Notes under the pieces: model-generated
What the model saw: only the letters and a program-made list of their open reading frames with translations
Databases searched by the model: none
Told to the model about the DNA's origin: nothing
Assembly: GCA_016209275.1 (NCBI GenBank)
Contig: JACQWM010000029.1
Span: 2,692-66,691 of the forward strand
Source of the DNA: Candidatus Omnitrophota bacterium
GTDB lineage: Bacteria; Omnitrophota; Gorgyraeia; Aquiviventales; Aquiviventaceae
DNA: 64,000 bases
Direction of reading: 5' to 3'
In this document: positions 1,284 through 17,061 of the stretch, piece after piece
Layout: each line of letters starts with the position of its first letter
Numbering within the stretch: the first letter of the stretch is position 1
Program-made: the position numbers and the translations under genes

Positions 1284-1601
1284 TTAAGTTTGTGTTACAA
1301 ACCGATAGCCCTGATCCCCCACCACGTCAATGCAGTCCCGGCCTTCTCGCTGCAAGACACCCTTCAGGTGGCGCAAATGCTCATCCACCATGCGCAAGCC
1401 GCCGGGGTCATGCCGGCCGAGGCCTTCTTCGAGGAGCCGGCGCTTGCTCACCACCTGCCCGGCACGCCCGGCCAAGTACGCCAGCAACGCGTACTCCCGA
1501 TAGGAGAGGGGCAGCGGCCGGCCTCGCACCAGCACCTGATAGCTGTCGAGGTCGATGACCAGATCGCCGAATGAGAGCGTTTGAGGTATGACCATCTTCA
1601 A
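1284..1601 (-). CDS. Standalone OmpR/PhoB-type winged-helix DNA-binding domain protein with no receiver domain
   Basis: 105 aa: ...LSYREYALLAYLAGRAGQVVSKRRLLEEGLGRH...RMVDEHLRHLKGVL...IDVVGDQGYRFV matches the trans_reg_C winged-helix pattern. Start is TTG at 1601 or ATG at 1595. The 32-bp palindrome lies 9 nt upstream. Confidence 0.65.
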   Translation of the reverse strand: MKMVIPQTLSFGDLVIDLDSYQVLVRGRPLPLSYREYALLAYLAGRAGQVVSKRRLLEEGLGRHDPGGLRMVDEHLRHLKGVLQREGRDCIDVVGDQGYRFVTQT

Positions 1602-1609
1602 GCCAGAGC

Positions 1610-1641
1610 GATATCAGATATCGAATTCGATATCTGATATC
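1610..1641. repeat. Perfect 32-bp palindrome GATATCAGATATCGAATTCGATATCTGATATC (family copy 1)
   Basis: Read directly from the sequence. Identical to the copy at 7176-7207, including the flanking ccagagc. Confidence 0.9.
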
Positions 1642-1698
1642 GCCGTTGTAGTTGAAGGATGTTACCGGCAGATGACGGCTGGGTTAAATCGAGGTAAC

Positions 1699-3546
1699 TT
1701 AGAGGCGCTGCAGCAGGGCGTTTAATTCATTCTGGAGATCAAGGATGGCTTGCTTGCGTTTGAGCCAGAACGGATCTTCAAGAGGAAATTGATCGAGGTA
1801 GGTAAGAAACTCCTGTTCCAGGGCCCGCTGCTCTTTGCCGAGGGCCTCCATCAGCCAGGGGAGCGTGTCCTCCCCGTCGTTCGGCGGCTGCCGGGCGAGA
1901 CGATCGAGATACGTCATGAAGCCGCTGCGATAGCGGACCATGAGAAAATGGGAGAAGGCCCAGCTTTGCGCATACGCATACAGCGCGCTCTGGTTGGCCA
2001 TGCCCGCAAAGCTGCCCATCCGGAAGGCATGGAGAAATTCGAGGGGAAGGATCTGCCCCGCGCCGCGGGCTTTCTGGGCATCCGGCAGACGCAACACATT
2101 GGTGCCGCCAACAGGGCTTGGTTCCATGTACCCGGCCAGCCCTTCGCTGAACCAGGAATTGGCCGCCTGAAGATCGGTGATCTGGTCTTCGTTCTCGGTG
2201 GCAAACATGGCTTCAAGCAGCTTCCGTTTCTCCTCCACGGTCCCCGCCTTCAGAAACTCGCGCTTCTGTTGCGCCTTGGCCTGATCCGCCTCCGACATCT
2301 TTGACAAGACGATATGCTGGAGCTGCCAATCGTGAAACATGGCGTGGGTCATTTCATGCCGGAGGATTTCATTGCCGAGCTGGCCGTAGGCCTGGCGCAC
2401 CATGGCGTGGCCGGACTCCAGCTTGCGCAAAAATTCCGACCACAGCCCCTCCAGCGTGTCTTCGTACTGCGAGCCTTTGTACGCCGCCGTGCTGCGATCG
2501 CGCGCGCGCCGGAAGCGGCCGAGATAAATCTCGGACAGCAGCTCGGAAAATTGCTCGCCGACCATGTTGTAGCAATACAAGACTTCATCCTCCGGCTGAA
2601 AATATCCCACCGCGAACCACCCGGGGACCCCATCCGTCAGCGCGTACTCGATATACGCATCCTGGTTTTCAAAGATCACGATGTACGCTTGGACGGTGGG
2701 AGCGCGATCCTTCACTAGGGGAAAGAACGTGAGGTACCAGTCGGTCGCGACCTCCCGGATCACCTGGCGGTACTTCTTGATATCCGGCGGGGCGGAATCG
2801 CTGACAATCGTGAAAAGCCCTTCATCGTCCCATGACATCTGGGGAAAAATGGTTTGGAGATTCTTCTTGATCGCCGTTGAGCGCTCATTCTGCGCCGGCC
2901 GAAAGAGCAGCGCCTCCACATCCTTCCGGGCGATGGTCTGCTCCATCTGCCCGCCGCCGGGCAGCTCCTGGGCGAGCACGATGTCCGTGTCGGTGACCTG
3001 GGTGATCTTGGCGTCGATCACGGTGCCCTTCATCAATTTCACGACCACCTCGTGCTGGTAATCCCAGGGAATGTTCTCGTGTTCGTGCTCCCAGGGCATG
3101 AGAATGCCATCGCCGCTCAGACTCGCCGCACCTTTTTCCACGCGCTCAATTTCATCGCGTCTGAAGCCGACATCGCCGTAGTCAAACCGCAGAATCACCT
3201 CCTCTGACGTTTCCTTCAGCAGCTCGCCGGTCATGGCCCCGCCATTGGTCAAATACAGCGTCACCTGATTGGTAGTCACGGGCGGGACGAGCGTACTCGA
3301 TGAGGATGCTGGAGTGGATGCTGGAGGCTGGAAGCTGGACGCTGGAGGCTGCGATGGCGTTGCCAGCTCCGGCGTTGTGGAAAACCGCTGTTGGGTTCTC
3401 TGAAGCAAAGCTCGCACCTGATCCGGCAGTTGCACGTGCTGCTGCAACGCATCCAGGGGCGAGTGTTCCGGGTGTGCGCGCAGATACCAGCTAGCACCTC
3501 CGGCCGCCAGCATGACCACGGCAAGGAGCAGCAGAAACGTGCGCAT
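1699..3546 (-). CDS. Secreted or anchored protein with an HExxH-like motif (HEMTHAM) and a Pro/Ser-rich linker; resembles DUF1570 / peptidase-MA-like proteins
   Basis: 615 aa. N-terminal hydrophobic segment MRTFLLLLAVVMLAAGGASW, then a PPASSFQPPASTPASSSS linker. HEMTHAMF and a downstream SWFSEGLAGY/E block are present. Family assignment is from memory only. Confidence 0.4.
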   Translation of the reverse strand: MRTFLLLLAVVMLAAGGASWYLRAHPEHSPLDALQQHVQLPDQVRALLQRTQQRFSTTPELATPSQPPASSFQPPASTPASSSSTLVPPVTTNQVTLYLTNGGAMTGELLKETSEEVILRFDYGDVGFRRDEIERVEKGAASLSGDGILMPWEHEHENIPWDYQHEVVVKLMKGTVIDAKITQVTDTDIVLAQELPGGGQMEQTIARKDVEALLFRPAQNERSTAIKKNLQTIFPQMSWDDEGLFTIVSDSAPPDIKKYRQVIREVATDWYLTFFPLVKDRAPTVQAYIVIFENQDAYIEYALTDGVPGWFAVGYFQPEDEVLYCYNMVGEQFSELLSEIYLGRFRRARDRSTAAYKGSQYEDTLEGLWSEFLRKLESGHAMVRQAYGQLGNEILRHEMTHAMFHDWQLQHIVLSKMSEADQAKAQQKREFLKAGTVEEKRKLLEAMFATENEDQITDLQAANSWFSEGLAGYMEPSPVGGTNVLRLPDAQKARGAGQILPLEFLHAFRMGSFAGMANQSALYAYAQSWAFSHFLMVRYRSGFMTYLDRLARQPPNDGEDTLPWLMEALGKEQRALEQEFLTYLDQFPLEDPFWLKRKQAILDLQNELNALLQRL

Positions 3547-3588
3547 AACCAGTAGTATGCCGAATCACGCCGGAGATTGCAAAGGGCG

Positions 3589-4683
3589 TTACGAGCAGCC
3601 GGAGGGAGGGCAATCTTGCAGCGAGGTGAGCGCTGGACGCTGGATCGACATCGGCAGCACGACACTTTGCCCGGTGTTGCCGCCGCCCATCAGACGGATG
3701 TCATGATTCAAGGTCAGCCTGCCGTTGACGATCATGCCGTCATCCCGCCCGACGAATGACCCGTTGACCATCAAGTTCGTCGGCACCAGCCCGGTGATCG
3801 CATGGTTGGTGTAGAGCACGCCGTCGATCTGCATGGTGCCGGAGGCGGGCACAGCCAGCTTCGATCGGAAGGTGTCATCCGAGAGGGTCGACTCATAGAA
3901 CTTGCGGTCAGAGCCGTCGAGCTTCGTGCCTTCCGCCAGGCCGTCGTTGTCCCGCTGGTCGTAGTTGCCGTCGAACATCGGGCGGCCCTGCGCATCCGTC
4001 ATCTGGCCGCCAGCGCCGGTGTGGTAGCCCAAGTCGGCGTCGGTCGGGTCGATGACATAGGGCTGGGTCTTGGATCCGTCTTCGGCTTTGATCAGCGGAA
4101 GCGCGTTTTCCTCATACGCCTCGCTGGTGTAGTCGCCGATGACGATGTTGCCCTTTGCCGCAAAGCCGACCAGATCAGTCATCGTGGGATCAGGGATCGC
4201 CAGCTTGCCGGCTGCGTCCTTCACCTGCGGAAAACTGTAGTCGGCATCGCCTGGCACCGTGAAGCCATAGCGGTTCCAGGCGCAGGGGACGGCGGGGATC
4301 GTGCAGGCATTGCCGCAGATCTTCCCGCGGCCGGGGGTGGGCTGGCCGCAAACGGCCGGCTGAATCGCCAGGCACGTGTTGCCGCTGAGTGTTTTGGTGC
4401 ACGCGAAGTTGCACGGCGTGGTGGTCCCGTTCGTTGTCAGCGCATCGCAGCTTGGCGCGGGAGCGTTGCAGGTGAGGATGAGCTTCTTGTAACATATGCT
4501 GCCGCAGTTATTCGTTCCCGTCGTGTACGTATACGAGGTGCCGGATCTCGGGCTCGCGCACGTCGGCTCCGGCGCGTCGCATTCGGTCGGCGTGCAGGTG
4601 CCAGCGCCAAAGGCCGCCGCCTGCCACCAGAGCGCTCCCACAACCACCAAGACACGGCACAGCATCGCGACCGCGCGGTTCAT
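3589..4683 (-). CDS. Secreted Cys-rich protein (about 23 Cys in the first 140 aa) with an Asp-rich C-terminal half; fourth gene of pilin cassette 1
   Basis: Signal peptide MNRAVAMLCRVLVVVGALWWQAAAFGAG. Repeated CxxxC-type spacing; DGNYDQRDNDGLAEGTKLDGSD acidic loop. ATG lies 3 nt after the stop of the upstream large pilin-like gene. Confidence 0.6.
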   Translation of the reverse strand: MNRAVAMLCRVLVVVGALWWQAAAFGAGTCTPTECDAPEPTCASPRSGTSYTYTTGTNNCGSICYKKLILTCNAPAPSCDALTTNGTTTPCNFACTKTLSGNTCLAIQPAVCGQPTPGRGKICGNACTIPAVPCAWNRYGFTVPGDADYSFPQVKDAAGKLAIPDPTMTDLVGFAAKGNIVIGDYTSEAYEENALPLIKAEDGSKTQPYVIDPTDADLGYHTGAGGQMTDAQGRPMFDGNYDQRDNDGLAEGTKLDGSDRKFYESTLSDDTFRSKLAVPASGTMQIDGVLYTNHAITGLVPTNLMVNGSFVGRDDGMIVNGRLTLNHDIRLMGGGNTGQSVVLPMSIQRPALTSLQDCPPSGCS

Positions 4684-4686
4684 CGC

Positions 4687-6153
4687 TCAGCATCCCTCCG
4701 GCGCCGCCCCGTTCGGCGCCACATAAGTTCCGTCATTGCAGACCTTGCCAAGATTCGACATGATCCCGCTCGTGGTATTGTATTGGCGCACGACATCGGT
4801 GGCTTCGTACCGCTCTAGCGACGCCCACCCCGACGGATTCTTGTACACGATGGACCCCACGACATGAAGATTGCGGCCGGTGTAGATCGTCCCGCGGCCG
4901 CTCACGTAGCCCCGGATGATCACATCGCCGGGAATCACCACCGGGCCGTCGATCTTGATGGGGTTCGTGGACGTGCCGATGAGCACGATTGGCTGCTTCT
5001 CATCCCCTGTCTCGGCGGCGCCATCAGGCCCCTGATACGTCGCCGTGATCGTCTTCCATTGGCTGTTCTCGTAATATTTCAGGGTGGAGCCTGCCCCGTC
5101 GTTGTGCGACGCGGCCAGGCTTTTGTAGAGGCTCAGGTTTCCCAGATACGGCATGTCCTGCACCGGCTGCTGGCTGAATCTGACCTGCTCCGGCGCGCTC
5201 GCATGCCAGCCATAGCCGGCCCCCAGGGCGGCGGTGGCCCCGCTGATCGCCGGCTGGCCGGCGGCCGTAATCTGCTGGGCCGGGCGGGCTCGCTGGTCCG
5301 ACCGCTTATAGTCCCAGTAGGCGTTCCACGACGCGGTTTGCGTGGGGTTGCCGGTAATGGTCCCGACGGCCGCAAGGCCGGTCTCCGGATTGATGAGCTC
5401 GTCGTTTTCCGACGCATACAGATCGCCGTTGACGTAGATTTTCGTCAGCTGGCCGCCGGAAACCACGTCGCTCGTAAAATCGAGATCGCCGTTGGCGCGC
5501 ACTTCGCCGTTGACGACCACGGACGCTCCACCGCGGATGTCAAACCACCCGTAGTTGTTGACGAAATAGGCGTAGCGGAAAATATCCGACACCCCCAGGG
5601 CGATGTCATACGTCGCCTGCAGCTGCTTCGTGATCCCCCCGACCGTCGCCTGGCCGATCACCGTGATGCGGCGCGGGGAGAGCGTGTCGTCGGGATTCGT
5701 GGTCTCAACCGAGCTGATCCAAGCCTCGCCGGTCCCGCTGCTGAAGGCCACGCTTCGCGGCGAGGCTTGCGTGCCAAGGCCGGCCACGTGGTAGGTGTCA
5801 TCCGCCTCCAGCGCAAACGGCGGGTCGAGGTCTTGCGGCGGCTGCTCATCGAAGGCATCCAGCCACTGCAGGGCAGCCAGCGCATTGCCCTGATAGCGCA
5901 GTTGGTAGACATCCGCCGCCAGGAACTGATAGAAATCTTCGCGCAGCTGCTGCAGCGACGCCTGGGCCAGATCGCGGGCTTGCAGCGCATCGCGCAGATG
6001 CTCAACGCTCAGCCGCTGGGCCGCCGCCCGCTGGCTCAGCGCACCGCTATAGACGAGGAAGACCGTCAGCACCATGAAGCTGCTGATCAGCACAAACCCC
6101 CGCTTTCTCTTTTCCTTAATCACCGTAATCATCTTTACGGATTCTGCACCCAC
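4687..6153 (-). CDS. Large PilX/GspK-like minor pseudopilin (cassette 1); start alternatively at 6132
   Basis: KRKRGFVLISSFMVLTVFLV is a class-III signal-like N-terminus with no Glu at +5. About 480 aa. C-terminal region is paralogous to the 522/523-aa proteins of cassettes 2 and 3. Confidence 0.6.
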   Translation of the reverse strand: MGAESVKMITVIKEKRKRGFVLISSFMVLTVFLVYSGALSQRAAAQRLSVEHLRDALQARDLAQASLQQLREDFYQFLAADVYQLRYQGNALAALQWLDAFDEQPPQDLDPPFALEADDTYHVAGLGTQASPRSVAFSSGTGEAWISSVETTNPDDTLSPRRITVIGQATVGGITKQLQATYDIALGVSDIFRYAYFVNNYGWFDIRGGASVVVNGEVRANGDLDFTSDVVSGGQLTKIYVNGDLYASENDELINPETGLAAVGTITGNPTQTASWNAYWDYKRSDQRARPAQQITAAGQPAISGATAALGAGYGWHASAPEQVRFSQQPVQDMPYLGNLSLYKSLAASHNDGAGSTLKYYENSQWKTITATYQGPDGAAETGDEKQPIVLIGTSTNPIKIDGPVVIPGDVIIRGYVSGRGTIYTGRNLHVVGSIVYKNPSGWASLERYEATDVVRQYNTTSGIMSNLGKVCNDGTYVAPNGAAPEGC

Positions 6154-6608
6154 ACTTGCGATTCCAGCGTTTGGGCCAGCTCTGACCGCATCCCATTGCC
6201 TCGCACGACGAGCTGCACCTTCACGACGTTATCCGCCTGGCAGGTGGGAGTGAAGGCGGTCAGCCCTCCGGCTACCGTCGTCGCCGGGTCGTTGTTGACC
6301 TGCTTGGTCAGCAGCGCTCCGGCGCGCGCGTAGGTGATTTGGTCAGCGCCCACCCTCATCTGCAGCGAATCCGCAGCGCAGGCCAACCCTGCGGTCGCGG
6401 AAGCTCGCCGCAGATCCTCGACGATGCGGTCCATGGCGATCTGGGCCCCGGTCGTGTTGGCGAGCGAGTCATCCGTGTGCTGCCAGATCCGATTGCCGGT
6501 CTGGGTCATGACGAGCAGCGAGCCGCTCATCAGGCTAAAGACCGTCGCCACCACCATGACCTCGACAAAGGTAAACTCCCCTCGGCGATTCCATCGTCTG
6601 CGTCTCAT
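6135..6608 (-). CDS. Prepilin-type N-terminal cleavage/methylation-domain pseudopilin, medium (cassette 1)
   Basis: The ORF track extends to 6749, but ATG at 6606-6608 overlaps the upstream TGA (ATGA) and gives MRRRRWNRRGEFTFVEVMVVATVFSL, a pilin-type N-terminal motif. Confidence 0.6.
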   Translation of the reverse strand: MRRRRWNRRGEFTFVEVMVVATVFSLMSGSLLVMTQTGNRIWQHTDDSLANTTGAQIAMDRIVEDLRRASATAGLACAADSLQMRVGADQITYARAGALLTKQVNNDPATTVAGGLTAFTPTCQADNVVKVQLVVRGNGMRSELAQTLESQVWVQNP

Positions 6609-7141
6609 CACGAGTCTCTCCGTCCCATGCGGGTGGACACCATCACCGGCGATTGCAGCCATCCGTCCGCGTCTACCTGCTCGCCAACATCGAACTGGCC
6701 GTTGCAATTGCGATCGCCGCCGATTTGCCGCCCCCGCTCCCGCCAGCACGCCGCCACATGCAAATCCAGCAGCGACGGATTGCCGGGATTGTGCAGATCT
6801 CCGCTTTTAATTTGGATCGTCAAAACACCTTGAGCACCCGCCGGCAGCCCGGTCAGGGGCGCGCTTTGCCCGTTGCCACGAGCGCCTGCATATGCAGGCC
6901 CGGTCCAGAGGGTGTCCAGCGGGGTGGCGGAGAGCTGATCTAGCTGGCCCTGCGCGGCGTTGAGCGCGGCCTGCGCATGGCTGAAGTAATCGACCTGGAA
7001 GAGCAGCGAGGGCATGCCCATCAGCAAGCCGCCGATGCCGACGACGAGCAAGGCCACACCGACGACCAGCTCAAGCAAGGTCATCCCGGACGCAAAACAT
7101 CCGACCCGCAGACGCGATGGACCTCGGATCGGATTGTGCAT
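6608..7141 (-). CDS. Prepilin-type pseudopilin, small (cassette 1)
   Basis: Start at MHNPIRG (ATG 7139-7141), preceded by AAGGGGG. Leader ...FASG^MTLLELVVGVALLVV has Glu at +5. The track ORF begins 27 nt earlier at 7168. Confidence 0.65.
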   Translation of the reverse strand: MHNPIRGPSRLRVGCFASGMTLLELVVGVALLVVGIGGLLMGMPSLLFQVDYFSHAQAALNAAQGQLDQLSATPLDTLWTGPAYAGARGNGQSAPLTGLPAGAQGVLTIQIKSGDLHNPGNPSLLDLHVAACWRERGRQIGGDRNCNGQFDVGEQVDADGWLQSPVMVSTRMGRRDS

Positions 7142-7175
7142 GACAACCCCCTTTGGCAACCCAGCCATCCAGAGC

Positions 7176-7207
7176 GATATCAGATATCGAATTCGATATC
7201 TGATATC
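7176..7207. repeat. 32-bp GATATCAGATATCGAATTCGATATCTGATATC palindrome (copy 2) in the cassette-1 5' leader
   Basis: Perfect palindrome, 8 nt upstream of the first in-frame ATG (7168). Confidence 0.9.
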
Positions 7208-7232
7208 GTCTTAGGACCTGTGGCTTTGCGAC

Positions 7233-7248
7233 CCACGCTTACGCGTGG
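7233..7248 (-). promoter_or_regulatory. Leader hairpin 1 (sense CCACGC-GUAA-GCGUGG, GNRA loop), cassette 1
   Basis: Plus strand ccacgcttacgcgtgg. The homologous positions in cassettes 2 and 3 are cctggattactccagg: a different 6-bp stem with the identical loop and flanks, i.e. full covariation. Confidence 0.6.
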
Positions 7249-7261
7249 TGTGCCTTTATCA

Positions 7262-7276
7262 GTAGGGTTTACCTAC
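7262..7276 (-). promoter_or_regulatory. Leader hairpin 2 (GTAGG-N5-CCTAC), cassette 1
   Basis: gtagggtttacctac here; the cassette-2 equivalent gtagggcccgcctac (10287-10301) keeps the stem with a different loop. Confidence 0.45.
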
Positions 7277-7290
7277 TTTTTCCTAATTTA

Positions 7291-7319
7291 AGTATACCTA
7301 ATGCGCCGAGACACTGACA
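7291..7319 (-). promoter_or_regulatory. Candidate sigma70 promoter of cassette 1 (sense TTGTCA-18-TATACT)
   Basis: Sense strand ...tTTGTCAgtgtctcggcgcattaggTATACTtaaa; the TAAGTATACCT block is conserved in the cassette-2 leader. Confidence 0.4.
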
Positions 7320-7322
7320 AAC

Positions 7323-8891
7323 CTACGGGCGCTGCTCTGCCCAGGCCACGAAGTCATAACGGCCGGTGTTCGGAAACGAGGGTGGGGCCAGGCGCAGCAG
7401 CCGCGCATCATAGACGTAGTCCTTGTCGAACCCGTCTCCGGCGCCGGTTTTCGCATCGATATTCCATCCCACCAGCCCTCGTTCATCCTGGATAAGCCCC
7501 CCAAAAAGATGCAGCCGCCCCTTGTAGCCAATCCTCGCTCGTTCATCGCTGTCGTCCTTCTTATAGGCGCCTTTGACCGTGAACGTCCGCAGCGCCATCA
7601 CCGAGCCTTGGATCATAATCCCAATAGGCGGTCGCGCAGGGTCCGGCAGGTGGACGCGATCAGGGAATTTGGTTTCATCGGAGGTATCCACGATGATATC
7701 TTTCCGTGAGACCAAGCCAAGCAGGTCACGGCTTTCTCCGTTGTCACAGGCAGGGTTGTTCTGCCGATCCTCGTCTGTGACCGGAGTGCCATCGGCGTTG
7801 ACGCTATCCGGGTTGCAGGCATAGATGATGTGCCCTTGGATCGTCATGTCCTCCTGGCTGGCCAGCGTCACCTGGCCGTGGAGTATGCTATCCTCCACCG
7901 TCAACTCCTCCTTCCCAAGTATGACGAGCTTGCCGGCAATCGTGTATCGAACTTCCAGGATGCTAGGATCCGCCGCGTTCGGGGTAGGGGCAAGTTTGTT
8001 GCCCTTCAATTTCACCTCGTCCACCCCCTTGCCTGTCACCACGAGTTCGTACCTCTGTGGGCCATCTGGTTGCAGTAGATCAATGGGATGCTGCTCGAAT
8101 CGGACCACGGCGTCATCGCCAATCACGATGCCGGAAGCCTTGGCCGCCGGCACGAGGTCCTCGTCGAAGCGTTTCTTCGCCTCGGGCATAGGAATCGGCT
8201 TCTCGAGTTTTTGAGGCAGCTCCGCATACGTCGGGTTGCACGGAGCGCTCGTGCACACAATCGCCCCGGTGTAGGACACCGGCCCGAGAAACGTCGGGCT
8301 CCCCATGATGTACAAATTGTCATTAACGTGCACCGGCCCTCTGAGCACTTCAGCGCCTGTCATGTTGATCGCTTGCCCTTTTTTATACTTATTCCAAAAC
8401 ATCAGATACTTCGAAAAACTCTCTCGTTTGATCGTCATGGCCGCCGTTCGCGTGACGGCAATGCCTGTCGTCGTGCCGCTGGCCGTAATCGTAAAAGCCG
8501 CCTGGGCAGGCTCAGCCTCATTCAGGTCATCCGGATCAACCGTCACCGTGAACGACCCTGAGCCAGGGAAGGTTTGAATGATCCCGCCCAGCTCCGGGGT
8601 AAAGGCGCTGGTCAGGGACGCGCATTGTTGCCCTTCAACAGCAAACTCGTCGGAGCAGACCGGCCGTTCGTCTTCCGCCAGCAGCCATTGCACCCCCGCA
8701 TCAAGCCCGGCTTCGGCCAAGGCTAAGGCGCGCTGCTGGGTGGCGGCACGTCGGGCGATGGCGGTATCGTTCATCGTCCGCAGCAGACCCACGGAGAGGA
8801 GTGTTGAGATCCCAGCGCTGGTCACCAAGGCCAACAGTAACAGCGAGCCTTGCCGCGGTCGTCTCATGAGCCTCCCCCCTTTCCTCATCAT
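7323..8891 (-). CDS. Large PilX/GspK-like minor pseudopilin (cassette 2)
   Basis: 522 aa. N-terminus RRPRQGSLLLLALVTSAGISTLL. Long identical blocks shared with the 523-aa cassette-3 protein (ESFSKYLM, DSVNADGTPVTDEDRQNNP, LHLFGGLIQDERG, GFDKDYVYD). Confidence 0.65.
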   Translation of the reverse strand: MMRKGGRLMRRPRQGSLLLLALVTSAGISTLLSVGLLRTMNDTAIARRAATQQRALALAEAGLDAGVQWLLAEDERPVCSDEFAVEGQQCASLTSAFTPELGGIIQTFPGSGSFTVTVDPDDLNEAEPAQAAFTITASGTTTGIAVTRTAAMTIKRESFSKYLMFWNKYKKGQAINMTGAEVLRGPVHVNDNLYIMGSPTFLGPVSYTGAIVCTSAPCNPTYAELPQKLEKPIPMPEAKKRFDEDLVPAAKASGIVIGDDAVVRFEQHPIDLLQPDGPQRYELVVTGKGVDEVKLKGNKLAPTPNAADPSILEVRYTIAGKLVILGKEELTVEDSILHGQVTLASQEDMTIQGHIIYACNPDSVNADGTPVTDEDRQNNPACDNGESRDLLGLVSRKDIIVDTSDETKFPDRVHLPDPARPPIGIMIQGSVMALRTFTVKGAYKKDDSDERARIGYKGRLHLFGGLIQDERGLVGWNIDAKTGAGDGFDKDYVYDARLLRLAPPSFPNTGRYDFVAWAEQRP

Positions 8892-8895
8892 CGCG

Positions 8896-9534
8896 TCATC
8901 CGATCGTGTTGCGCAGCTTCACCTGGGTCACCAATGGCGCGTCTTGAGGGCTCGCCCCCATCTGCCCCCCAGGCAGCTGAGCCGAAAGCTGCTGAACCGC
9001 GAGCCGTATGACCACAATGTGCGTTTGCGTGTTGTAGGTAAAGTCGAGAAGCCTCGCGTAGTGCGCCAGCACCCGGCCGCTGCCGTCTTTCAGATTGCCG
9101 CCCTCATCCAGAATATCTCGCACGAGCTGAATCGAACCATTCAACCGATAGCGCAGAAACCAGCCCGCCTTATGCGCCCCTTGCTGGTCAGGCGCTCCCC
9201 ACATCATGTTCCCGGTCCCCGAATCGTACTGGCCCACCTGAAACGTGACCGACTCGCTTTGGTCCGGGACGATTTGGGCGATGATGAGATTCGCTGCGCC
9301 CGGCCGCGCTTGCCGCAGCTCGTTGGTCATGTTCGCGAGCGCCTGGCGCGCTTGCTGCTGGACAACCACGTACATCTCCGAAGAGATCGAGGCGCGCTGC
9401 GCGGTCATCATGGCGGTCCCCACCGCCCCCACGACCACCGCCATCACCACCGCGACAAAGAGAGTTTCCACCAGCGTCGCCCCGCAAGCGCTTCCCAGAC
9501 GCGCACGATCATGGTGGATTGTTGTGTCATTCAT
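8896..9534 (-). CDS. Prepilin-type pseudopilin, medium (cassette 2)
   Basis: ...ACG^ATLVETLFVAVVMAVVVG with Glu at +5. ATG 9532-9534 overlaps the upstream TGA (ATGA). The track ORF starts at 9543. Confidence 0.65.
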   Translation of the reverse strand: MNDTTIHHDRARLGSACGATLVETLFVAVVMAVVVGAVGTAMMTAQRASISSEMYVVVQQQARQALANMTNELRQARPGAANLIIAQIVPDQSESVTFQVGQYDSGTGNMMWGAPDQQGAHKAGWFLRYRLNGSIQLVRDILDEGGNLKDGSGRVLAHYARLLDFTYNTQTHIVVIRLAVQQLSAQLPGGQMGASPQDAPLVTQVKLRNTIG

Positions 9535-10166
9535 CGACGGCAACTCACGAGTGTTTGCAGTTGCGCCGGAGAGGTGATGATCCCATCGTTATTGCCGATC
9601 GGCGGCGCATCTTCCGGCACCAATTGCGCGCCGTCCCACCGGCATTCCCCGGTCACGCGGCCGCCCTGCCGCCAGCAGACCGCGATCGTCGCCCTCAGCG
9701 GATTAAAATCCGTATCCCCCGCCTGGACGTTCCATTCGCCTGCCCCAACTTGAGTCGCCGTCCCGCAGGGCGTGGCGATGTTCCTGCTGTCGCGGCACGT
9801 CACAATGATCCGCTCGTTGATGTCCGGCATCGGTTGGATGCTCTTGCCCCCGCCTGCCACCGCCATTCACTCATTCCAACTGGCTCCCCCCGGCGGTTGG
9901 ACGGTGGGCGTAAGGCATGTATCCGAGGTATTTTGCTGTCGGAGCTGCTCGAAGACGCGGCCGGCGTCGTTCATGGCCCAGGTGAGGTTGCGCGAGGACT
10001 CATTCATCGCCGCCTGCTGCACTAGCCACGCCAGCAACCCGGCAATCCCCATCATGAAGATCAGGCTCGCGACGGCCAGCTCGATCATCGTCAACCCGCT
10101 GCTGGCTGAGCAGGCAACAAAAAATCCGATCCTGGAACGTCGCGGACGTCGGATCGGATGGAACAT
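9531..10166 (-). pseudogene. Small pseudopilin of cassette 2 interrupted by an in-frame TGA at 9867-9869
   Basis: Track ORFs 9867-10217 and 9531-9866 are colinear with the single 201-aa cassette-3 paralog. ...PPGGASWNE*WMAVAGGGKSIQP aligns with ...LSWDAWLADLNGGGGKSIRP. N-terminus is MFHPIRRPRRSRIGFFVACSASSG^LTMIELAV. Confidence 0.55.
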
Positions 10167-10200
10167 CGCAACCCCCTTTGGCAACCCAGCCATCCAGAGC

Positions 10201-10232
10201 GATATCAGATATCGCATTCGATATCTGATATC
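10201..10232. repeat. 32-bp palindrome copy 3 (GATATCAGATATCGCATTCGATATCTGATATC, one central mismatch) in the cassette-2 leader
   Basis: Read directly from the sequence; same flank ccagagc as copies 1 and 2. Confidence 0.9.
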
Positions 10233-10257
10233 GTCTTAGGACCTGTAGCTTTCCGAC

Positions 10258-10273
10258 CCTGGATTACTCCAGG
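10258..10273 (-). promoter_or_regulatory. Leader hairpin 1 (sense CCUGGA-GUAA-UCCAGG), cassette 2
   Basis: Covaries with the cassette-1 copy; flanks ...agctttccgacc and gtgtggcttt are conserved. Confidence 0.6.
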
Positions 10274-10457
10274 TGTGGCTTTCTCAGTAGGGCCCGCCTA
10301 CTGCTTCCCGTATCTGCCTAACCTGATAAGTATACCTGGTCTGTTGTAACTCCTTCAAATGGCGATGCGTTATGTTACTGTTGCTCTTCAACTTGCCAAC
10401 TCGTCATCCGCGGCCGCTTCATAACAATGGGGATGACGGGCTCCGATGCAAACCGCG

Positions 10458-12029
10458 CTAGCGCGTATCGTCCCAATAGAGGAACTCGTAGCGGCCCGTG
10501 GTCGGGAACGACGGCGGGGTCATGCGCAGCAACCGGATGTCATACACGTAGTCCTTGTCGAATCCGTCTGCGCCTGGCTGGTTGATATTCCACCCCACAT
10601 AACCACGCCTGTCTTGAATGAGCCCTCCAAATAGATGTAACAGGCCTTTATACCCAAGGTTGTCATTTCGCACATCCCCTGGCACGCTGCCGCCTCCCTT
10701 GACATAGAAGGTCTTGAGGGCCATCACCGAGCCATGAATGGTTAGACCAATGTCCGCTCCCGGACCCCCTGCGACGGGCACGCCTACATTAGGCAGTGCT
10801 GCTGTATCGACAGCGATGTTGTTTCTCGACACCAAGCCCAGGAGATCGAGGCTCTCCCCTTCGTCGCAGTCGGGGTCGTTCTGACGATCTTCGTCTGTGA
10901 CCGGGGTGCCGTCTGGGTTGACGCTATCAGGGTTGCACGCATAGACGATATTCCCCTTGATGGTCATGTCGTCATGGCTCGCTAACGTAACCTTTCCATG
11001 GAGCTCTCCGCCATTGATGATCACCTCATGGTCTCCGACGATAAGCAGGGGTTCGGTTAGATCCACCACGAGGGCGTCTTGGCCCGCCGGCCTTGACACG
11101 GTGATCCCCTTGACCTGGATCTGCCCACCATCGGGAACATCGTCAAGCTCGACCCTAGTCCCTTTGACCGCGATCTCGACGTCGTCATCGTCGGCTGCAA
11201 ATTTCATCTTGTCCCCCAGCATCGTCACGGTGGTGTCATGCTTCAGACGAAGCCCGTCATCACTGGCTCGCTGGACCAGGTTGGGGAAATCTGACAGCCG
11301 GTCTGGCAGGGGGACCTCCTCGACCCTTTTCGGCGGGCTATCTTCATAGCGCGGGGCGCAGGCATCACACTGAATAGCCCCGACATACTCGACCGTGGAC
11401 TTGAATGTTGGGGTCCCCTTCAGATACAGATTGCCCCCTGTGTAAACGGGTCCATCCATGGTTTCATTCGTGGAAAAGTAGATTACCGCATTGTTCGCAT
11501 ATCGTTTGTAATACATGAGAAACTTTGAAAAGCTCTCCCGCTTCAGGGCAACGGTCACCGTCCGCTGAGAAGGAAATGCGCCGACCGTTGTTCCTGTCGC
11601 GCGAATGGTAAAGGTGGCGCTGGAGGGATCGGTGCCATTTTCGTCACCCGGATCCACCGTGACCGTGAAATCGCCAACTCCTGGGAGGCTCAGCGGCGTG
11701 GCCACGTCGGGAGTAAAATCATCGGTTGTCCCGCCTTGACACTCTTGAGCCACTTGGTTGCCTGGAAGCGTAGGTTGGCTGCACTCAGGCAGCCGGTTCT
11801 GGCTCTTCTCGATCACCCACTGGATGCCTGCATCAAGCCCGGCTTCGGCCAGGGCAAAGGCTTGCTGATTGGCGGCTGAACGCTGGGCAATGCTGCTTTC
11901 GTTCATCGCCCGGATCTGGCCAATTGACAGCAGTGTGGCTACTAGCGCGGTGAGCATCAGCGCACTCAGCAGTATCGCCCCTCGTCGTGCCTGTCTCATG
12001 ACGGTCCTCCTTGCGTTGTTCAGAGTCAT
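10458..12029 (-). CDS. Large PilX/GspK-like minor pseudopilin (cassette 3)
   Basis: 523 aa, RRGAILLSALMLTALVATLL. ATGA overlap with the upstream gene. Paralog of 7323-8891. Confidence 0.65.
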   Translation of the reverse strand: MTLNNARRTVMRQARRGAILLSALMLTALVATLLSIGQIRAMNESSIAQRSAANQQAFALAEAGLDAGIQWVIEKSQNRLPECSQPTLPGNQVAQECQGGTTDDFTPDVATPLSLPGVGDFTVTVDPGDENGTDPSSATFTIRATGTTVGAFPSQRTVTVALKRESFSKFLMYYKRYANNAVIYFSTNETMDGPVYTGGNLYLKGTPTFKSTVEYVGAIQCDACAPRYEDSPPKRVEEVPLPDRLSDFPNLVQRASDDGLRLKHDTTVTMLGDKMKFAADDDDVEIAVKGTRVELDDVPDGGQIQVKGITVSRPAGQDALVVDLTEPLLIVGDHEVIINGGELHGKVTLASHDDMTIKGNIVYACNPDSVNPDGTPVTDEDRQNDPDCDEGESLDLLGLVSRNNIAVDTAALPNVGVPVAGGPGADIGLTIHGSVMALKTFYVKGGGSVPGDVRNDNLGYKGLLHLFGGLIQDRRGYVGWNINQPGADGFDKDYVYDIRLLRMTPPSFPTTGRYEFLYWDDTR

Positions 12030-12640
12030 CCTCCACTGGTATTGCGGAGTTTCACCTGGGTTGTCACGATACCCGGACTGACCGCGGCCGGACCGCCGGC
12101 CATTTGACCGGCCGCCTGCCTGATCTGCAAGCGCACCGTGGCCATCCGACTGTCCTGATCGTACGCAAAGTCCAACAGTTGTGCGTCATTGGCAAGCACG
12201 CGTCGACCGCCAGGGACGAGGATGCCACCGGGATTCAAGATCTCTCGGACGAGCTGGGTGCCATTCAATCGGTACTGAAGAAACCAGTTCTCTCGGTGAT
12301 CCCCACTCAGATCCGGCGCCCCCCAAACCATCTCTGTTACCTCGAACCTGCCCACCTGAAATCTGAGTACGTCGTGGGTGTCCGGGTTAATCCCCCCAGT
12401 GGTATCCGTAATCTGCATATGGACATTCGGGGGCCTATTCGGCCTGGCCAGCCGCAGTTCCTCCGCCATGGCATCGAGCGCCTGGCGTGCTTGCTGCTGC
12501 GCGTGCACGTAGGCGGCTGAGGTCACCGACGAGCGTTGGGATGATAACATGATCGTGGTCACCGAACCTATCACGAGCGTAAAGAGTAATGCAACCACCA
12601 GGATTTCGACGAGCGTGGCACCTTTCACTCGTCTCTTCAT
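12026..12640 (-). CDS. Prepilin-type pseudopilin, medium (cassette 3)
   Basis: MKRRVKG^ATLVEILVVALLFTLVIG. ATGA overlap with the upstream TGA. C-terminus ...VTTQVKLRNTSGG parallels ...VTQVKLRNTIG in cassette 2. Confidence 0.65.
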   Translation of the reverse strand: MKRRVKGATLVEILVVALLFTLVIGSVTTIMLSSQRSSVTSAAYVHAQQQARQALDAMAEELRLARPNRPPNVHMQITDTTGGINPDTHDVLRFQVGRFEVTEMVWGAPDLSGDHRENWFLQYRLNGTQLVREILNPGGILVPGGRRVLANDAQLLDFAYDQDSRMATVRLQIRQAAGQMAGGPAAVSPGIVTTQVKLRNTSGG

Positions 12641-13182
12641 CGTCGACAACTCATGACGGTTTGCAACTGCGCAGGCGAGTTCACCACGTTGGGGTCTCCA
12701 CTGGCCCCAGGGTTGTTCTCGATGAGCAAATTGCCATTCCAGGTACAGTCGCCAATGGTCCGGCTGCGATGGCGCCAGCAGACGGCAATGGTAAGATGGA
12801 TCGGATCATCGCCAGCTCCGCAAAAGCCCGAGTTATCAGCTTTTTGGCAAGTTACCGCAATAAGCTCATTAGAATCAGGCCGGATGCTTTTCCCGCCACC
12901 CCCATTGAGATCCGCAAGCCAAGCATCCCAACTCAGATACGCTACAGGGAGTTGCGGGGGTAGCGCGCTTGGTGTTACACACGCATCGGATGTATTTTGC
13001 TGCCGGATGCGCTCCAGCACGCGCCTGGAATCGTTCATGGCCAGCGTGAAGTTGCGGGAGTGCTCATTGAGCACCGTTTGCGAGACGATGGCTCTAAAGA
13101 ATCCGGCGAGACCTATCACGAGGATGAAGACGCCGATCAGCACCTCCATCGCCGTCATGCCTCCCGTGGTTCGATCTGGCAT
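12637..13182 (-). CDS. Prepilin-type pseudopilin, small (cassette 3), intact
   Basis: MPDRTTGG^MTAMEVLIGVFILVIG, a 7-aa leader. RBS AGGGAG 8 nt upstream of ATG 13180-13182. C-terminus SPAQLQTVMSCRR matches the cassette-2 copy. The track ORF starts at 13242. Confidence 0.65.
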   Translation of the reverse strand: MPDRTTGGMTAMEVLIGVFILVIGLAGFFRAIVSQTVLNEHSRNFTLAMNDSRRVLERIRQQNTSDACVTPSALPPQLPVAYLSWDAWLADLNGGGGKSIRPDSNELIAVTCQKADNSGFCGAGDDPIHLTIAVCWRHRSRTIGDCTWNGNLLIENNPGASGDPNVVNSPAQLQTVMSCRR

Positions 13183-13320
13183 GGGACACCACTCCCTAAA
13201 AACAATTTCGCCGGGTTTCCGATTTGGTGCGCTTACGCGCACGCTCTTTCGGCAACCCGGCGATCCTTGTTCTCTTCGGCAGCCTGGCTATCCGTCGAGC
13301 AGGACCCGTGGCTTTCCGAC

Positions 13321-13336
13321 CCTGGATTACTCCAGG
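13321..13336 (-). promoter_or_regulatory. Leader hairpin 1 (sense CCUGGA-GUAA-UCCAGG), cassette 3
   Basis: Identical to the cassette-2 hairpin. This leader has no GATATC palindrome. Confidence 0.55.
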
Positions 13337-13371
13337 TGTGGCTTTATCGTGAGGTACTCGCGTACATATTA

Positions 13372-13399
13372 ACTATATCCCACAACGCTGCGAGTGTCA
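13372..13399 (-). promoter_or_regulatory. Strong candidate sigma70 promoter of cassette 3 (sense TTGACA-17-TATAGT)
   Basis: Sense gtgTTGACActcgcagcgttgtgggaTATAGTtaat. Plus strand tgtcaa 13394-13399, actata 13372-13377. Confidence 0.55.
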
Positions 13400-13418
13400 A
13401 CACAAATCTTAATAAAAG

Positions 13419-14432
13419 TTATTGCGAGACTACTCCCACAGTCCCCACGTCGTAGGTCTGCCCGGCACTCAGATCAGGCACGTCCACCACACGAGCCCGA
13501 AATGTCGTCGCCGACGCACCACTGGGCGCCCCAAATCCGTCAGGATCCTCAAGGATGCGTGTCTCCGGAGGCTCCACCCGAAACTGGTAGCGTCCTGGAG
13601 GAATGCCCGGCAGCTCAAAGCGCCCAGCGGCATCCGAGCGGCGCTGGCGATCCACCAACCCGCTAAATCCGGTGAGGACCGTCTTGTTGGTCGCTCGATC
13701 GATCACGCGCAGGCTCGCCCCGATCAGCGGTGCATCGCCACGCACCACGCGCCCGGTGAGTGTCGCGGTGGCGCGTTCCAATGGAGCCTCGGCGTTGGGA
13801 TACAAGACCGCCAGGCCGACGAGGTCATCGTTGCTGAGCACTGGCAAGTGGCTGACCATCGTCATGACACTCGGGGCCACCGAATGGCCCAGCCCAAGAC
13901 AATGGCCGATCTCGTGCATGATGATGCTCTTGACCTCAGGCAGCGTAAAGGGCGCCCGGGGCTGCACCAGGATATCGCAGTCCGCGGCAAAGACAAATGC
14001 GCGGCCGACGACCAACACCCCCTGACGCGCAGCACCTGGGGCCGGCCAAAAAATCACGTTCTGGCCGTCGGGCTGTGCTGAGGTTTTTTCGGGATCGTTG
14101 ATGATGTCACCGACGCGAAACGACAGCCCGACCGACTCCATCTGCCTCCACACCTTCAGCGCATCCTGCACCATCTGCCGCATCTGCGCCTCGGAGTAGG
14201 CGGCCGGCGCATTGGCCATGTTGATGGTGAAGGCGACCGGCTCCCCCTTCGGCCAGCGGGTGCGCTGTGCCCGCAACCCGAAGGCCTCGCCTCGATGCGG
14301 TGGCAGCACGAAGAAGACGACTAAGACGGTGGTGACCAAGTGGCTGGGTGGCCGGGTGGCCGGGAAAACTCTTTGGCCACTTGGCCACCTGGCCACTTGG
14401 CCACTGCTTAGCGTTTTCGGAGTGCTACTCAT
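13419..14432 (-). CDS. Secreted zinc metalloprotease of the metzincin type (HEIGHCLGLGH) with a C-terminal CarbopepD-regulatory-like beta-sandwich
   Basis: HExxHxxGxxH plus a downstream SVM Met-turn. C-terminal LTGRVVRGDAPLIGASLRV...GRYQFRV motif. ATG 14430-14432 lies 2 nt after the RR stop; an alternative TTG/GTG start is near 14336. The REP-like hairpin falls inside the 5' coding region. Confidence 0.6.
   Translation of the reverse strand: MSSTPKTLSSGQVARWPSGQRVFPATRPPSHLVTTVLVVFFVLPPHRGEAFGLRAQRTRWPKGEPVAFTINMANAPAAYSEAQMRQMVQDALKVWRQMESVGLSFRVGDIINDPEKTSAQPDGQNVIFWPAPGAARQGVLVVGRAFVFAADCDILVQPRAPFTLPEVKSIIMHEIGHCLGLGHSVAPSVMTMVSHLPVLSNDDLVGLAVLYPNAEAPLERATATLTGRVVRGDAPLIGASLRVIDRATNKTVLTGFSGLVDRQRRSDAAGRFELPGIPPGRYQFRVEPPETRILEDPDGFGAPSGASATTFRARVVDVPDLSAGQTYDVGTVGVVSQ
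14338..14400. repeat. REP-like GC-rich hairpin element, copy A ((GTGGCCGG)2 - aaaactcttt - GGCCACTTGGCCACCTGGCCACTTGGCCAC)
   Basis: Two arms complementary with G-U wobble. A near-identical copy is at 15114-15192 and a variant at 24771-24832. Confidence 0.75.
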
Positions 14433-15108
14433 GCGGCGCCAGAAACTTATAGCCGACATTGCGGACGGTGTCGATGTAGGCCGCTCCGCGCAGCTCGATT
14501 TTGGCGCGCAGCCGGCGGATGTGCACATCGACGGTGCGCGTGCCCCCGTAGTAATCATAGCCCCACACCTTATCGAGGAGGACTTCGCGGGTAAAGACCT
14601 TGCCCGGGTGGGTCACGAGAAATTTCAACAGCTCAAACTCTTTGTAGGTCAAATCGGCCGGCTCGCCGTGCACATGCACTTCGTACCGCTCGAAATCGAT
14701 CACCAGGCCTTGATGGGAGAACCCGTTTTTCACTTCGATGCGGTCCGATTTCCAGAGCAAAAATTTCAGGCGCTGCATGAGGCGAGCCGCGCTCACCGGC
14801 AGGGTGAGGTAGTCGTCCATGCCCCACCCCACATCGAGCCGCCCGAGCTGCGCTTCGGTGACCAGTAACATCAGCGGCAGCTCCTTCAGCGGCCGCTCGC
14901 GTTTCAGCGCGCGGCAAAGCTTTGACGGTTCGGTGGCACAGCGCTCCAGATCCACGACCACGACATCCAGCGACGACGGCGGAATCCAGCGCTCCTGCAG
15001 GAACTCCGAGGAGGCCACCGGGTCGAGGGTAAAGCCCTGCTGGAGCAGCTCGGATTTGAGCGGCTTTTTCGTCTTCCAGTCGTCCGTGATCAAAAGGACA
15101 CGATACAT
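14425..15108 (-). CDS. OmpR-family response regulator (receiver plus winged helix)
   Basis: MYRVLLITDD...VVVVDL...MLLVTE...Y(L)TLP receiver, then C-terminal ...TYKEFELLKFLVTHPGKVFTREVLLDKVWGYDYYGGTRTVDVHIRRLRAKI. ATG at 15108 lies 2 nt after the nadE TAA. No cognate kinase is in the window. Confidence 0.85.
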   Translation of the reverse strand: MYRVLLITDDWKTKKPLKSELLQQGFTLDPVASSEFLQERWIPPSSLDVVVVDLERCATEPSKLCRALKRERPLKELPLMLLVTEAQLGRLDVGWGMDDYLTLPVSAARLMQRLKFLLWKSDRIEVKNGFSHQGLVIDFERYEVHVHGEPADLTYKEFELLKFLVTHPGKVFTREVLLDKVWGYDYYGGTRTVDVHIRRLRAKIELRGAAYIDTVRNVGYKFLAPHE

Positions 15109-15110
15109 CG

Positions 15111-16901: not shown

Positions 16902-16911
16902 AATCAAGGCC

Positions 16912-16947
16912 ATATCAGATATGAAATGGCCATTTCATATCTGATAT
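16912..16947. repeat. Perfect palindrome ATATCAGATATGAAATGGCCATTTCATATCTGATAT (GATATC family, GGCC centre)
   Basis: Read directly; sits in the -35 region of the nadE promoter. Confidence 0.9.
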
Positions 16948-16964
16948 CGCTCGTGATGGGGCCA

Positions 16965-17000
16965 TATCAGATATCAAATGGCCATTTGATATCTGATATC
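16965..17000. repeat. Perfect palindrome ATATCAGATATCAAATGGCCATTTGATATCTGATAT (second tandem copy)
   Basis: Read directly; 17 bp from the previous copy. Confidence 0.9.
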
Positions 17001-17061
17001 GTAGTTAGGTGGGGAGGGGGAATTCCGCGGATTGGCCGTTATGGAAGGGAGACAGGCCTGA

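Follow-up and report, generated by a model that had tools for sequence, protein, structure and literature searches.

The class I riboswitches for cyclic diguanylate (c-di-GMP) are also known as the GEMM motif, in which a highly conserved and strongly covarying first hairpin, nearly always capped by a GNRA tetraloop, is joined by an AAA linker to a second hairpin (PMC1950547). The first hairpin, called P1 in the nomenclature of 2007, corresponds to P2 in the present work, and the same description pointed out that GEMM often occurs with terminators overlapping the second hairpin and is associated with pili genes (PMC1950547). For the Vc2 aptamer of Vibrio cholerae the ligand-contact residues have been listed (PMC4744006, PMC5888326), and in the variants for cyclic AMP-GMP (c-AMP-GMP) it is through a changed nucleotide of the pocket that the A or G base is recognised (PMC9481103). 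Here we describe three elements of this kind in the leaders of three cassettes of minor-pilin-like genes, found in a stretch of 64,000 nucleotides (nt) from an uncultivated Candidatus Omnitrophota bacterium (assembly GCA_016209275.1, contig JACQWM010000029.1, positions 2,692 to 66,691 of the forward strand), which as a whole is called the window hereafter.

The riboswitch class has been known since 2007–2008 and is detected by a standard Rfam model, so that the novelty of the finding is low. A full-text literature search combining Omnitrophota and riboswitch returned only a study of the ComFB receptor, as a preprint and in its published form, where both terms appear merely in passing. What the analysis adds is the assignment of a function to three long leaders and, with it, the prediction that c-di-GMP governs which of the minor-pilin-like cassettes are expressed in a representative of the uncultivated phylum Omnitrophota.

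Identification of the Aptamers

All the genes of the pilin-cassette region are encoded on the minus strand, and their three leaders occupy positions 7142–7322, 10167–10457 and 13183–13418. A scan of the entire window with Rfam at the gathering threshold, with E-values referring to the whole 64 kb, gave three matches and no others, all on the minus strand and all to the c-di-GMP-I clan CL00126 (Table 1). A covariance model (CM) of 80–87 positions was matched end to end in each of the three leaders, and a repeated scan recovered them once more. The match of leader 2 is to RF01051 (10177–10289, 55.8 bits against a gathering score of 35, E 3.3e-8), and two more matches of the same clan above their gathering scores, one of them on leader 1, were suppressed as lower-scoring overlaps and presumably represent RF01051 on leaders 1 and 3.

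The CM alignment places G, A and C at the equivalents of the Vc2 contact residues G20, A47 and C92 in all three leaders. The positions of the interhelical pair (C44–G83 in Vc2) are likewise occupied in every leader by the C of GGGUCG and the G of a P3 bulge (GG, AG or CG), which according to the alignment would pair, and in all of them P2 is capped by GUAA and connected to P3 by an AAA linker. Leaders 1 and 2 contain CCUAAG...GAUGG, which resembles the 11-nt tetraloop receptor of P3 without matching it; this candidate was set aside as doubtful, the match being imperfect and in conflict with the CM pairing, and the loops are of the GYRA type (GUAA), with which tetraloop receptors are usually absent (PMC1950547). 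Because of the identity of the aptamers, their architecture and covariation, the canonical pocket, the position in the 5′ untranslated region (UTR) and the pilin-like genes downstream, each leader very likely contains a canonical class I c-di-GMP riboswitch (GEMM-I, RF01051 clan).

The attention of the first-pass annotation of this DNA had been drawn by the P2 hairpin, read as an isolated structure. On the sense strand the order is AAAG-s-CACACC, a 6-bp stem, GUAA, the return strand and GGGUCG-s-AAAGCyACrGGUCC, and the loop and the stems (CCACGC/GCGUGG in leader 1, CCUGGA/UCCAGG in leaders 2 and 3) are exactly as they had been quoted. The statement that all six stem pairs change in a compensatory manner was wrong, as pairs 1, 2 and 5 (C-G, C-G and G-C) are the same in all leaders and the changes from leader 1 to leaders 2 and 3 are restricted to pairs 3, 4 and 6 (A-U to U-A, C-G to G-C and C-G to A-U). 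A fourth compensatory pair is located at the base of P2, where the two ‘s’ positions of the flanks form G-C in leader 1 and C-G in leaders 2 and 3; the flanks, described as identical, are thus shared by the leaders except for these two letters. The central idea of a hairpin selected as RNA structure holds, both in view of the Rfam matches (E = 3e-13, 1.1e-12 and 3.3e-8) and of the covariation in relatives, and the P2-containing leader is very probably cis-regulatory. What did not survive is its independence: in these long and separately promoted leaders the hairpin is P2 of a three-helix aptamer that continues for another ~90 nt downstream and reaches the ribosome-binding site, and its conserved ‘flanks’ are the junction nucleotides of the ligand pocket together with the 5′ strand of P3. 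In practice, when a 5′ leader shows a covarying GNRA hairpin between invariant flanks, a comparison with Rfam should come first.

A promoter scan recovered the separate sigma70-like promoter that had been proposed for each leader, with TATACT boxes in leaders 1 and 2 and TTGACA-17-TATAGT in leader 3. These sites lie 28–40 nt upstream of the aptamers and imply 5′ UTRs of ~143, ~156 and ~183 nt for leaders 1, 2 and 3, and a CAGGyAUACUUA box recurs 5′ of the homologous aptamers in relatives.

Table 1. Location of the riboswitch, promoter, platform, repeat and gene features in the window (aptamer residues in Vc2 numbering).
Feature	Position	Strand	Details
Leader 1, complete c-di-GMP-I aptamer (P1, P2, P3)	7151–7263	-	63.6 bits, E 1.1e-12 (clan CL00126); G20 = 7254, A47 = 7227, C92 = 7156
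Leader 1, P2 arm	7228–7253	-	stem 7243–7248/7233–7238; GUAA loop 7239–7242; basal pairs G7253-C7228, C7252-G7229; from sequence, CM alignment and covariation in relatives
Leader 2, complete c-di-GMP-I aptamer	10176–10289	-	P2 10253–10278; GUAA loop 10264–10267; G20 = 10279, A47 = 10252
Leader 3, c-di-GMP-I aptamer	13274–13351	-	65.6 bits, E 3e-13; P2 13316–13341; GUAA loop 13327–13330; G20 = 13342, A47 = 13315
Leader 1, promoter-like site	7291–7320	-	TTGTCA-18-TATACT; promoter scan
Leader 2, promoter-like site	10329–10358	-	TTGAAG-18-TATACT; promoter scan
Leader 3, promoter-like site	13372–13400	-	TTGACA-17-TATAGT; promoter scan, 11/12 matches
Leader 1, Shine-Dalgarno and start	7139–7151	-	GGGGG 7147–7151 = outer P1 3′ strand; AUG 7139–7141 of first cassette-1 gene; sequence
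Leader 2, Shine-Dalgarno and start	10164–10176	-	GGGGG 10172–10176, abutting P1; AUG 10164–10166 of first cassette-2 gene; sequence
Leader 1, upstream hairpin	7261–7277	-	AGUAGG-UAAAC-CCUACU; 3′ arm overlaps P1 5′ strand and anti-Shine-Dalgarno CCCU
Leader 2, upstream hairpin	10287–10301	-	GUAGG-CGGGC-CCUAC; sequence
Leader 3, H3a (first aptamer 3′ half)	13274–13293	-	C.A mismatch at model pair 44–69
Leader 3, H3b (second copy of aptamer 3′ half)	13246–13266	-	GGAUCGCCGGGUUGCCGAAAG; pairs with the same 5′ half without mismatch; better conserved
Leader 3, terminator-like element	13198–13262	-	stem 13249–13262/13209–13222; U-run 13198–13205; minimum free energy fold
Leader 1, P3-apex palindrome	7175–7208	.	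CGATATCAGATATCG-AATT-CGATATCTGATATCG, 34 nt, perfect; treated by the CM as a loop insertion
Leader 2, P3 palindrome	10200–10233	.	same 34-nt arms, centre AATG
Third copy of the 34-nt palindrome	1609–1642	.	between last cassette-1 gene and 105-aa Trans_reg_C gene (1284–1601)
Cassette 1 genes, downstream of leader 1	1699–7141	-	translations, hidden Markov models
Cassette 1, PilV-like prepilin	6608–7141	-	first cassette gene; G|MTLLE class III signal motif
Cassette 1, DUF4900/PilX-like protein	4687–6153	-	
Cassette 1, remaining genes	within 1699–7141	-	second pseudopilin-like protein, Cys-rich 364-aa protein, DUF1570 protein
Cassette 2 genes	7323–10166	-	pseudopilin 8896–9543; DUF4900 protein 7323–8891; TGA-interrupted PilV-like gene
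Cassette 3 genes	10458–13182	-	PilV-like 12637–13182; N_methyl pseudopilin 12026–12649; DUF4900-like 523-aa protein 10458–12029

Covariation in Homologous Leaders

Homologous leaders were collected with a degenerate pattern in which the four inner pairs of the P2 stem were left free, scanned over species-representative genomes. This yielded 17 loci in metagenome-assembled genomes (MAGs) of Omnitrophota, Planctomycetales, Blastocatellia, Bdellovibrionia and Desulfobacterota type, and all 17 turned out to be Rfam matches of the c-di-GMP-I clan. When the window and one metagenome contig (L021) are added, 12 distinct inner P2 stems are found, essentially all of them paired. The claim of an RNA-level structure depends on how these stems change among relatives, and the changes are compensatory and not disruptive: over 13 distinct P2 sequences 99% of the cells are paired, with double changes in 5 of the 8 pairs and a score reached by none of 500 shuffles, whereas controls with slid strands are paired in only 22–55%. 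A similar picture was obtained for the whole aptamer (P1, P2 and P3) in 12 relatives, where 91% of the cells are paired and 12 of the 24 pairs are compensatory (0/500 shuffles reach the score).

Some loci outside the window have features of their own. Two tandem c-di-GMP-I aptamers are present in a Desulfomonilia MAG (L016, 7610–7788), and in another locus (L018, 5149–5670) an adenosylcobalamin (AdoCbl) riboswitch lies ~250 nt upstream of the c-di-GMP-I aptamer, an arrangement of the two classes that has been discussed (PMC9481103).

Proposed Expression Platforms

In leaders 1 and 2 the aptamer ends in ...UUGCCAAAG, directly followed by GGGGUUGUC-AUG. Their P1 is made up of the inner pairs UG/CA, a 2x2 internal loop and then CCCU facing the GGGG of the Shine-Dalgarno (SD) sequence, and the same geometry, CC(C)-AC-UG ... 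CA-AA-GGGG with the SD abutting P1, is also found in three relatives (L013, L021 and L022). Because the G-run of the SD is the outer 3′ strand of P1, both leaders may work as translational OFF switches for their minor-pilin cassettes, a proposal whose chances we consider about even. Binding of c-di-GMP at the three-helix junction would stabilise P1, which would then hide the SD through the pairing of CCCU with GGGG. A second hairpin, GUAGG-N5-CCUAC, had been reported as conserved in these two leaders with different loops, and it is indeed there (7262–7276 and 10287–10301), though its arms are identical in both, it shows no covariation and it is absent in relatives. The most suitable reading makes it a component of the expression platform and a candidate anti-P1 (anti-sequestor) element: as its 3′ arm CCUAC is the 5′ strand of P1, the two would compete, and in the absence of ligand the hairpin would capture that strand and free the SD.

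Leader 3 has a different organisation, with two copies of the 3′ half of the aptamer, H3a and H3b, the second of which doubles as the 5′ strand of a terminator-like stem. A simple terminator scan missed this stem, whose loop exceeds 8 nt. That loop contains an inner GUAA-capped hairpin, GUGCGC-GUAA-GCGCAC (13227–13242, minus strand), and the relatives have a hairpin of different sequence in the same place. The H3b/terminator module is present in nine leaders, those being leader 3 and eight from Omnitrophota and Planctomycetales (L004, L006, L007, L008, L010, L017, L027 and L030), once per leader and always 3′ of the aptamer. In two of them (L007 and L010) the Rfam model aligns to H3b itself and takes H3a as a loop insertion, and in L030 H3a and H3b each carry the changes that compensate two substitutions in the P3 5′ strand (U42 and C48).

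A terminator overlapping the 3′ side of the aptamer is usually read as an ON switch (PMC1950547). Leader 3 would accordingly carry a transcription-terminator platform with H3b as the 5′ strand of the terminator, where an aptamer built with H3b would exclude the terminator, and where H3a, whose C.A mismatch is conserved, would keep the 5′ half in the terminating fold by default. That leader 3 is an ON switch is a proposal to which we give about one chance in two, and the direction of control is its least certain step. If confirmed, a terminator platform derived from a duplicated aptamer 3′ half, shared by several Omnitrophota and Planctomycetales MAGs, would be of interest and would leave the classification unchanged.

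Alternative Explanations

Several points weigh against these readings. Binding of c-di-GMP and gene control by the leaders are predictions, as are the transcription starts of all three. Constrained folding of leaders 1 and 2 leaves the alternative states within ~5–6 kcal/mol and gives no decision on the platform, the SD of leader 1 is able to pair with the downstream coding sequence as well, and the upstream GUAGG/CCUAC hairpin is conserved in these two leaders only. For leader 3 the same type of calculation places the terminator state 8–14 kcal/mol lower in energy than the aptamer state with H3b, and its H3a aptamer looks binding-competent, so that OFF logic is equally conceivable. Leader 2 may stand ahead of a decaying gene, given an in-frame TGA in the first gene of its cassette, and RF03167 (c-di-GMP-I-GGC) outscores the other models on leaders 1 and 3 as well as on most of the Omnitrophota relatives.

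This last match is what speaks for specificity variants responding to another ligand, either of the c-di-GMP-I-GGC or of the c-AMP-GMP (GEMM-Ib) type. The consensus of the UAU model has U, A and U at the equivalents of Vc2 G20, A47 and C92, and in that of the GGC model a G replaces A47, with which the AAA linker begins in RF01051, from which it follows that the letters of both names stand for positions 20, 47 and 92. Model position 37 (Vc2 A47) is an A in every one of the leaders, a mismatch to the G of RF03167, and leader 2 scores 58.2 bits with this model, below its cut-off of 59, while passing RF01051. As the defining G47 is absent and the canonical G20, A47 and C92 are present, the RF03167 label is a cross-hit and the identity as GGC variants was rejected. 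In c-AMP-GMP (GEMM-Ib) variants the changed pocket nucleotide is A20, a criterion that reportedly goes back to Kellenberger and to Nelson in 2015, and the Geobacter GEMM examples largely sense c-AMP-GMP by means of this A20. The window RNAs have G20; with a G at position 20 in all three leaders, specificity for c-AMP-GMP is unlikely and this identity was also discarded. On the whole, a ligand other than c-di-GMP seems very improbable.

More weight may be given to the idea that one or more copies, especially leader 2, are decaying and non-functional relics of cassette duplication, which we nevertheless hold to be unlikely. The TGA of cassette 2 (9867–9869, minus strand) splits the first gene into open reading frames (ORFs) of 116 and 111 amino acids (aa) and appears aligned with a Trp (SWDAW) of the intact 201-aa paralogue in cassette 3. 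Leader 2 is moreover a mosaic: over the 47 positions of its P1-P2 half it has 3 differences from leader 3 against 10 from leader 1, and its other half, with P3, the palindrome described below and the SD, is 99% identical to leader 1. The TGA could mark a pseudogene, a sequencing error (or an assembly error, the genome being a MAG) or a recoding site, and the aptamer of leader 2 has all of its conserved positions intact, with a score well above the RF01051 threshold. The leaders are 94–99% identical in segments, as compared with only 49% for the DUF4900 proteins of cassettes 2 and 3, which suggests that the leaders have been maintained; the same figure, together with the mosaic, suggests recombination or gene conversion among them. 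A stand-alone hairpin serving as protein-binding site, RNA stability element or thermometer, with an incidental riboswitch match, would be in keeping with the fact that, within the window, the most obvious covariation is that of the hairpin alone. It is scarcely credible in the face of a full covariance model matched end to end in three leaders, of P1 and P3 covarying too in relatives and of flanks that coincide exactly with the invariant nucleotides of the GEMM-I junction.

The Palindrome in P3

Leaders 1 and 2 have, at the apex of P3, a 34-nt palindrome of the general form CGATATCAGATATCG-N4-CGATATCTGATATCG, which extends this helix by ~15 bp. A third copy at 1609–1642 lies outside any riboswitch; its reading as a degenerate one was considered and rejected, as nothing aptamer-like is found upstream. 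A metagenome scan that demanded exact arms, so that the apparently perfect conservation of the arms is partly a matter of ascertainment, returned seven contigs, five of them distinct. Three of the metagenome copies are in GEMM-I P3 loops (L021, L023, which is the same as L026, and L022), and the others are in housekeeping spacers, 3′ of a fabF-like ORF (L020) or between nuoL-like and nuoM-like ORFs (L024, the same as L025), these names being taken from translations. The leader of L022 (5930–6095) is GEMM-I-like and syntenic with the window; its P2 is enlarged by a branched insertion of ~60 nt, and it was not detected by Rfam at the gathering threshold. In the fabF-like locus L020, an AdoCbl riboswitch (7539–7717) is found ~2 kb from the palindrome copy.

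Related sequences occur as well in the spacer upstream of nadE in the window (16908–17003), where two tandem palindromes of ~42 nt, GGCCATATCAGATATsAAATGGCCATTTsATATCTGATATCG, share the ATATCAGATAT core with the P3 palindrome and differ from each other by a compensatory change. A variant palindrome with a compensatory change of an inner pair lies in L023 (282–315), just upstream of an ABC ATPase-like ORF (named from its translation). None of the other Omnitrophota loci contains the ATATCAGATAT core, even where a small Trans_reg_C gene is kept, and no match of the palindrome was found in viral contigs. Because of the copies in unrelated spacers, the tandem pair, the variant copy and the synteny without palindrome, the element follows the pattern of a lineage-specific dispersed intergenic repeat resembling the repetitive extragenic palindromic (REP) sequences, which at the P3 tip has been tolerated, or perhaps co-opted, and would merely lengthen this helix.

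The palindrome might also be a DNA operator, for instance for the adjacent 105-aa Trans_reg_C protein, which would place the cassettes under the dual control of a protein and c-di-GMP. One copy is just upstream of this small winged-helix gene, the arms are perfectly conserved with a variable central 4 nt while the surrounding riboswitch has diverged, and 5 of the 8 distinct exact-arm copies fall inside GEMM-I P3 loops. Such an operator is hardly expected in the fabF-like and nuoL-like/nuoM-like spacers or as a related tandem pair upstream of nadE; the variant in L023 keeps the palindrome through its compensatory change, relatives with the syntenic Trans_reg_C gene have no palindrome, and the perfect arms owe something to the search itself. 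We take the operator to be rather unlikely and favour the repeat. If confirmed, the recurrent presence of a lineage-specific palindromic repeat at the P3 tip would be of interest, again with no effect on the classification.

A second family of hairpin repeats, with (GGTGGCCG)n / (CCACyTGG)n arms, is found at 14331–14405 and 15102–15199, overlapping gene ends. Rfam matches to miRNA families in these two regions and in 16908–17003 were dismissed, as they are far below the gathering scores and reflect long hairpin repeats.

A scheme of reciprocal control may be drawn from these platforms, in which high c-di-GMP would shut cassettes 1 and 2 through the SD in P1 and relieve the termination of cassette 3, with a mismatched decoy H3a and a terminator-embedded H3b competing for the 5′ half, and with a palindrome possibly domesticated for a sequence-specific role, for instance as a site for a protein or RNase III. 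It is a doubtful construction; if true, the cell would swap its sets of pilus-tip or minor-pilin proteins according to the level of c-di-GMP. Beyond the identification itself, the interest that remains is in the terminator platform with the duplicated 3′ half and in the repeat-bearing P3, both to be regarded as leads only.

Cassettes and Neighbouring Genes

The first two products of each cassette have prepilin-type N-termini, and the motifs G|MTLLE, G|MTAME, G|ATLVE and G|LTMIE can be read in the translations. Their matches to PilV, N_methyl and pseudopilin profiles are below the curated cut-offs (PilV E 2.6e-5; N_methyl 18 bits against 21.2), and the third product, DUF4900/PilX-like, is marginally above its own (29.7 bits against 29.4); a distant DUF4900 homologue is located in a pilMOQ locus. 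A homologue search with the 523-aa protein of cassette 3 gave four matches, of which the distant ones (L001 and L002) have no riboswitch context, exact look-ups of this protein and of another, P0001, gave no match, and a protein-pattern scan of species-representative genome contigs with two DUF4900 paralogues found no relatives.

Other Omnitrophota MAGs and some metagenome contigs show the order nadE, response regulator, riboswitch, pilin-like cassettes and small Trans_reg_C gene in synteny, and these loci also have c-di-GMP-I matches at the equivalent position. The full response regulator stands at the proximal end of the cassette block, adjoining nadE. The small gene, kept at the distal end in several Omnitrophota MAGs, encodes a stand-alone Trans_reg_C domain (OmpR-type winged helix) of 103–125 aa without receiver domain, both in the window (1284–1601, minus strand, 105 aa) and in the syntenic L027, L028 and L030. 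Further away in the window, a single ORF of 701 aa (24838–26943, minus strand) comprises malate dehydrogenase (Ldh_1_N/C) and citrate synthase domains, which in L030 are encoded by separate neighbouring genes one base apart; either a natural fusion of both enzymes or a lost stop or assembly error would account for it.

Comparison with Known Systems

The type examples of RF01051 are Vc2 (tfoY/tfoX-GEMM) and Vc1 (gbpA) of Vibrio cholerae. The window elements share with them the three-helix aptamer, the GNRA-capped first hairpin, the AAA linker, the G20/A47/C92 pocket, the interhelical C-G pair and the location in the 5′ UTR. They differ in the GUAA instead of GAAA loop, in the palindrome inserted in P3 (two copies) and in the duplicated 3′ half (one copy), and their host is an uncultivated Omnitrophota bacterium, where the riboswitches are predicted from sequence.

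With the GEMM elements that precede pilus assembly genes in bacteria including Geobacter (PMC1950547), the common feature is the association with pilus and secretion genes, and the many terminators that overlap the 3′ side of the second hairpin in that collection are comparable to the H3b/terminator of leader 3. The genes concerned are here minor-pilin-like cassettes (PilV/PilW/PilX-like, DUF4900) and not pilMNOPQ. The P3 palindrome resembles REP sequences and bacterial interspersed mosaic elements (BIMEs) in being a short perfect hairpin of intergenic or intra-operon location, with several copies, tandem pairs, conserved arms and variable loops, but an unusually high share of its known copies reside in riboswitch P3 loops. 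A last parallel is offered by Cdi-2-4 upstream of pilA1 in Clostridioides difficile, also a c-di-GMP riboswitch on type IV pilin genes, whose ON logic based on transcription termination resembles the one proposed for leader 3 (PMC6366702). In that case the aptamer belongs to class II (c-di-GMP-II), the gene encodes a major pilin and the control has been experimentally validated (PMC6366702), whereas the leaders of the window combine class I aptamers with cassettes of minor-pilin-like genes.

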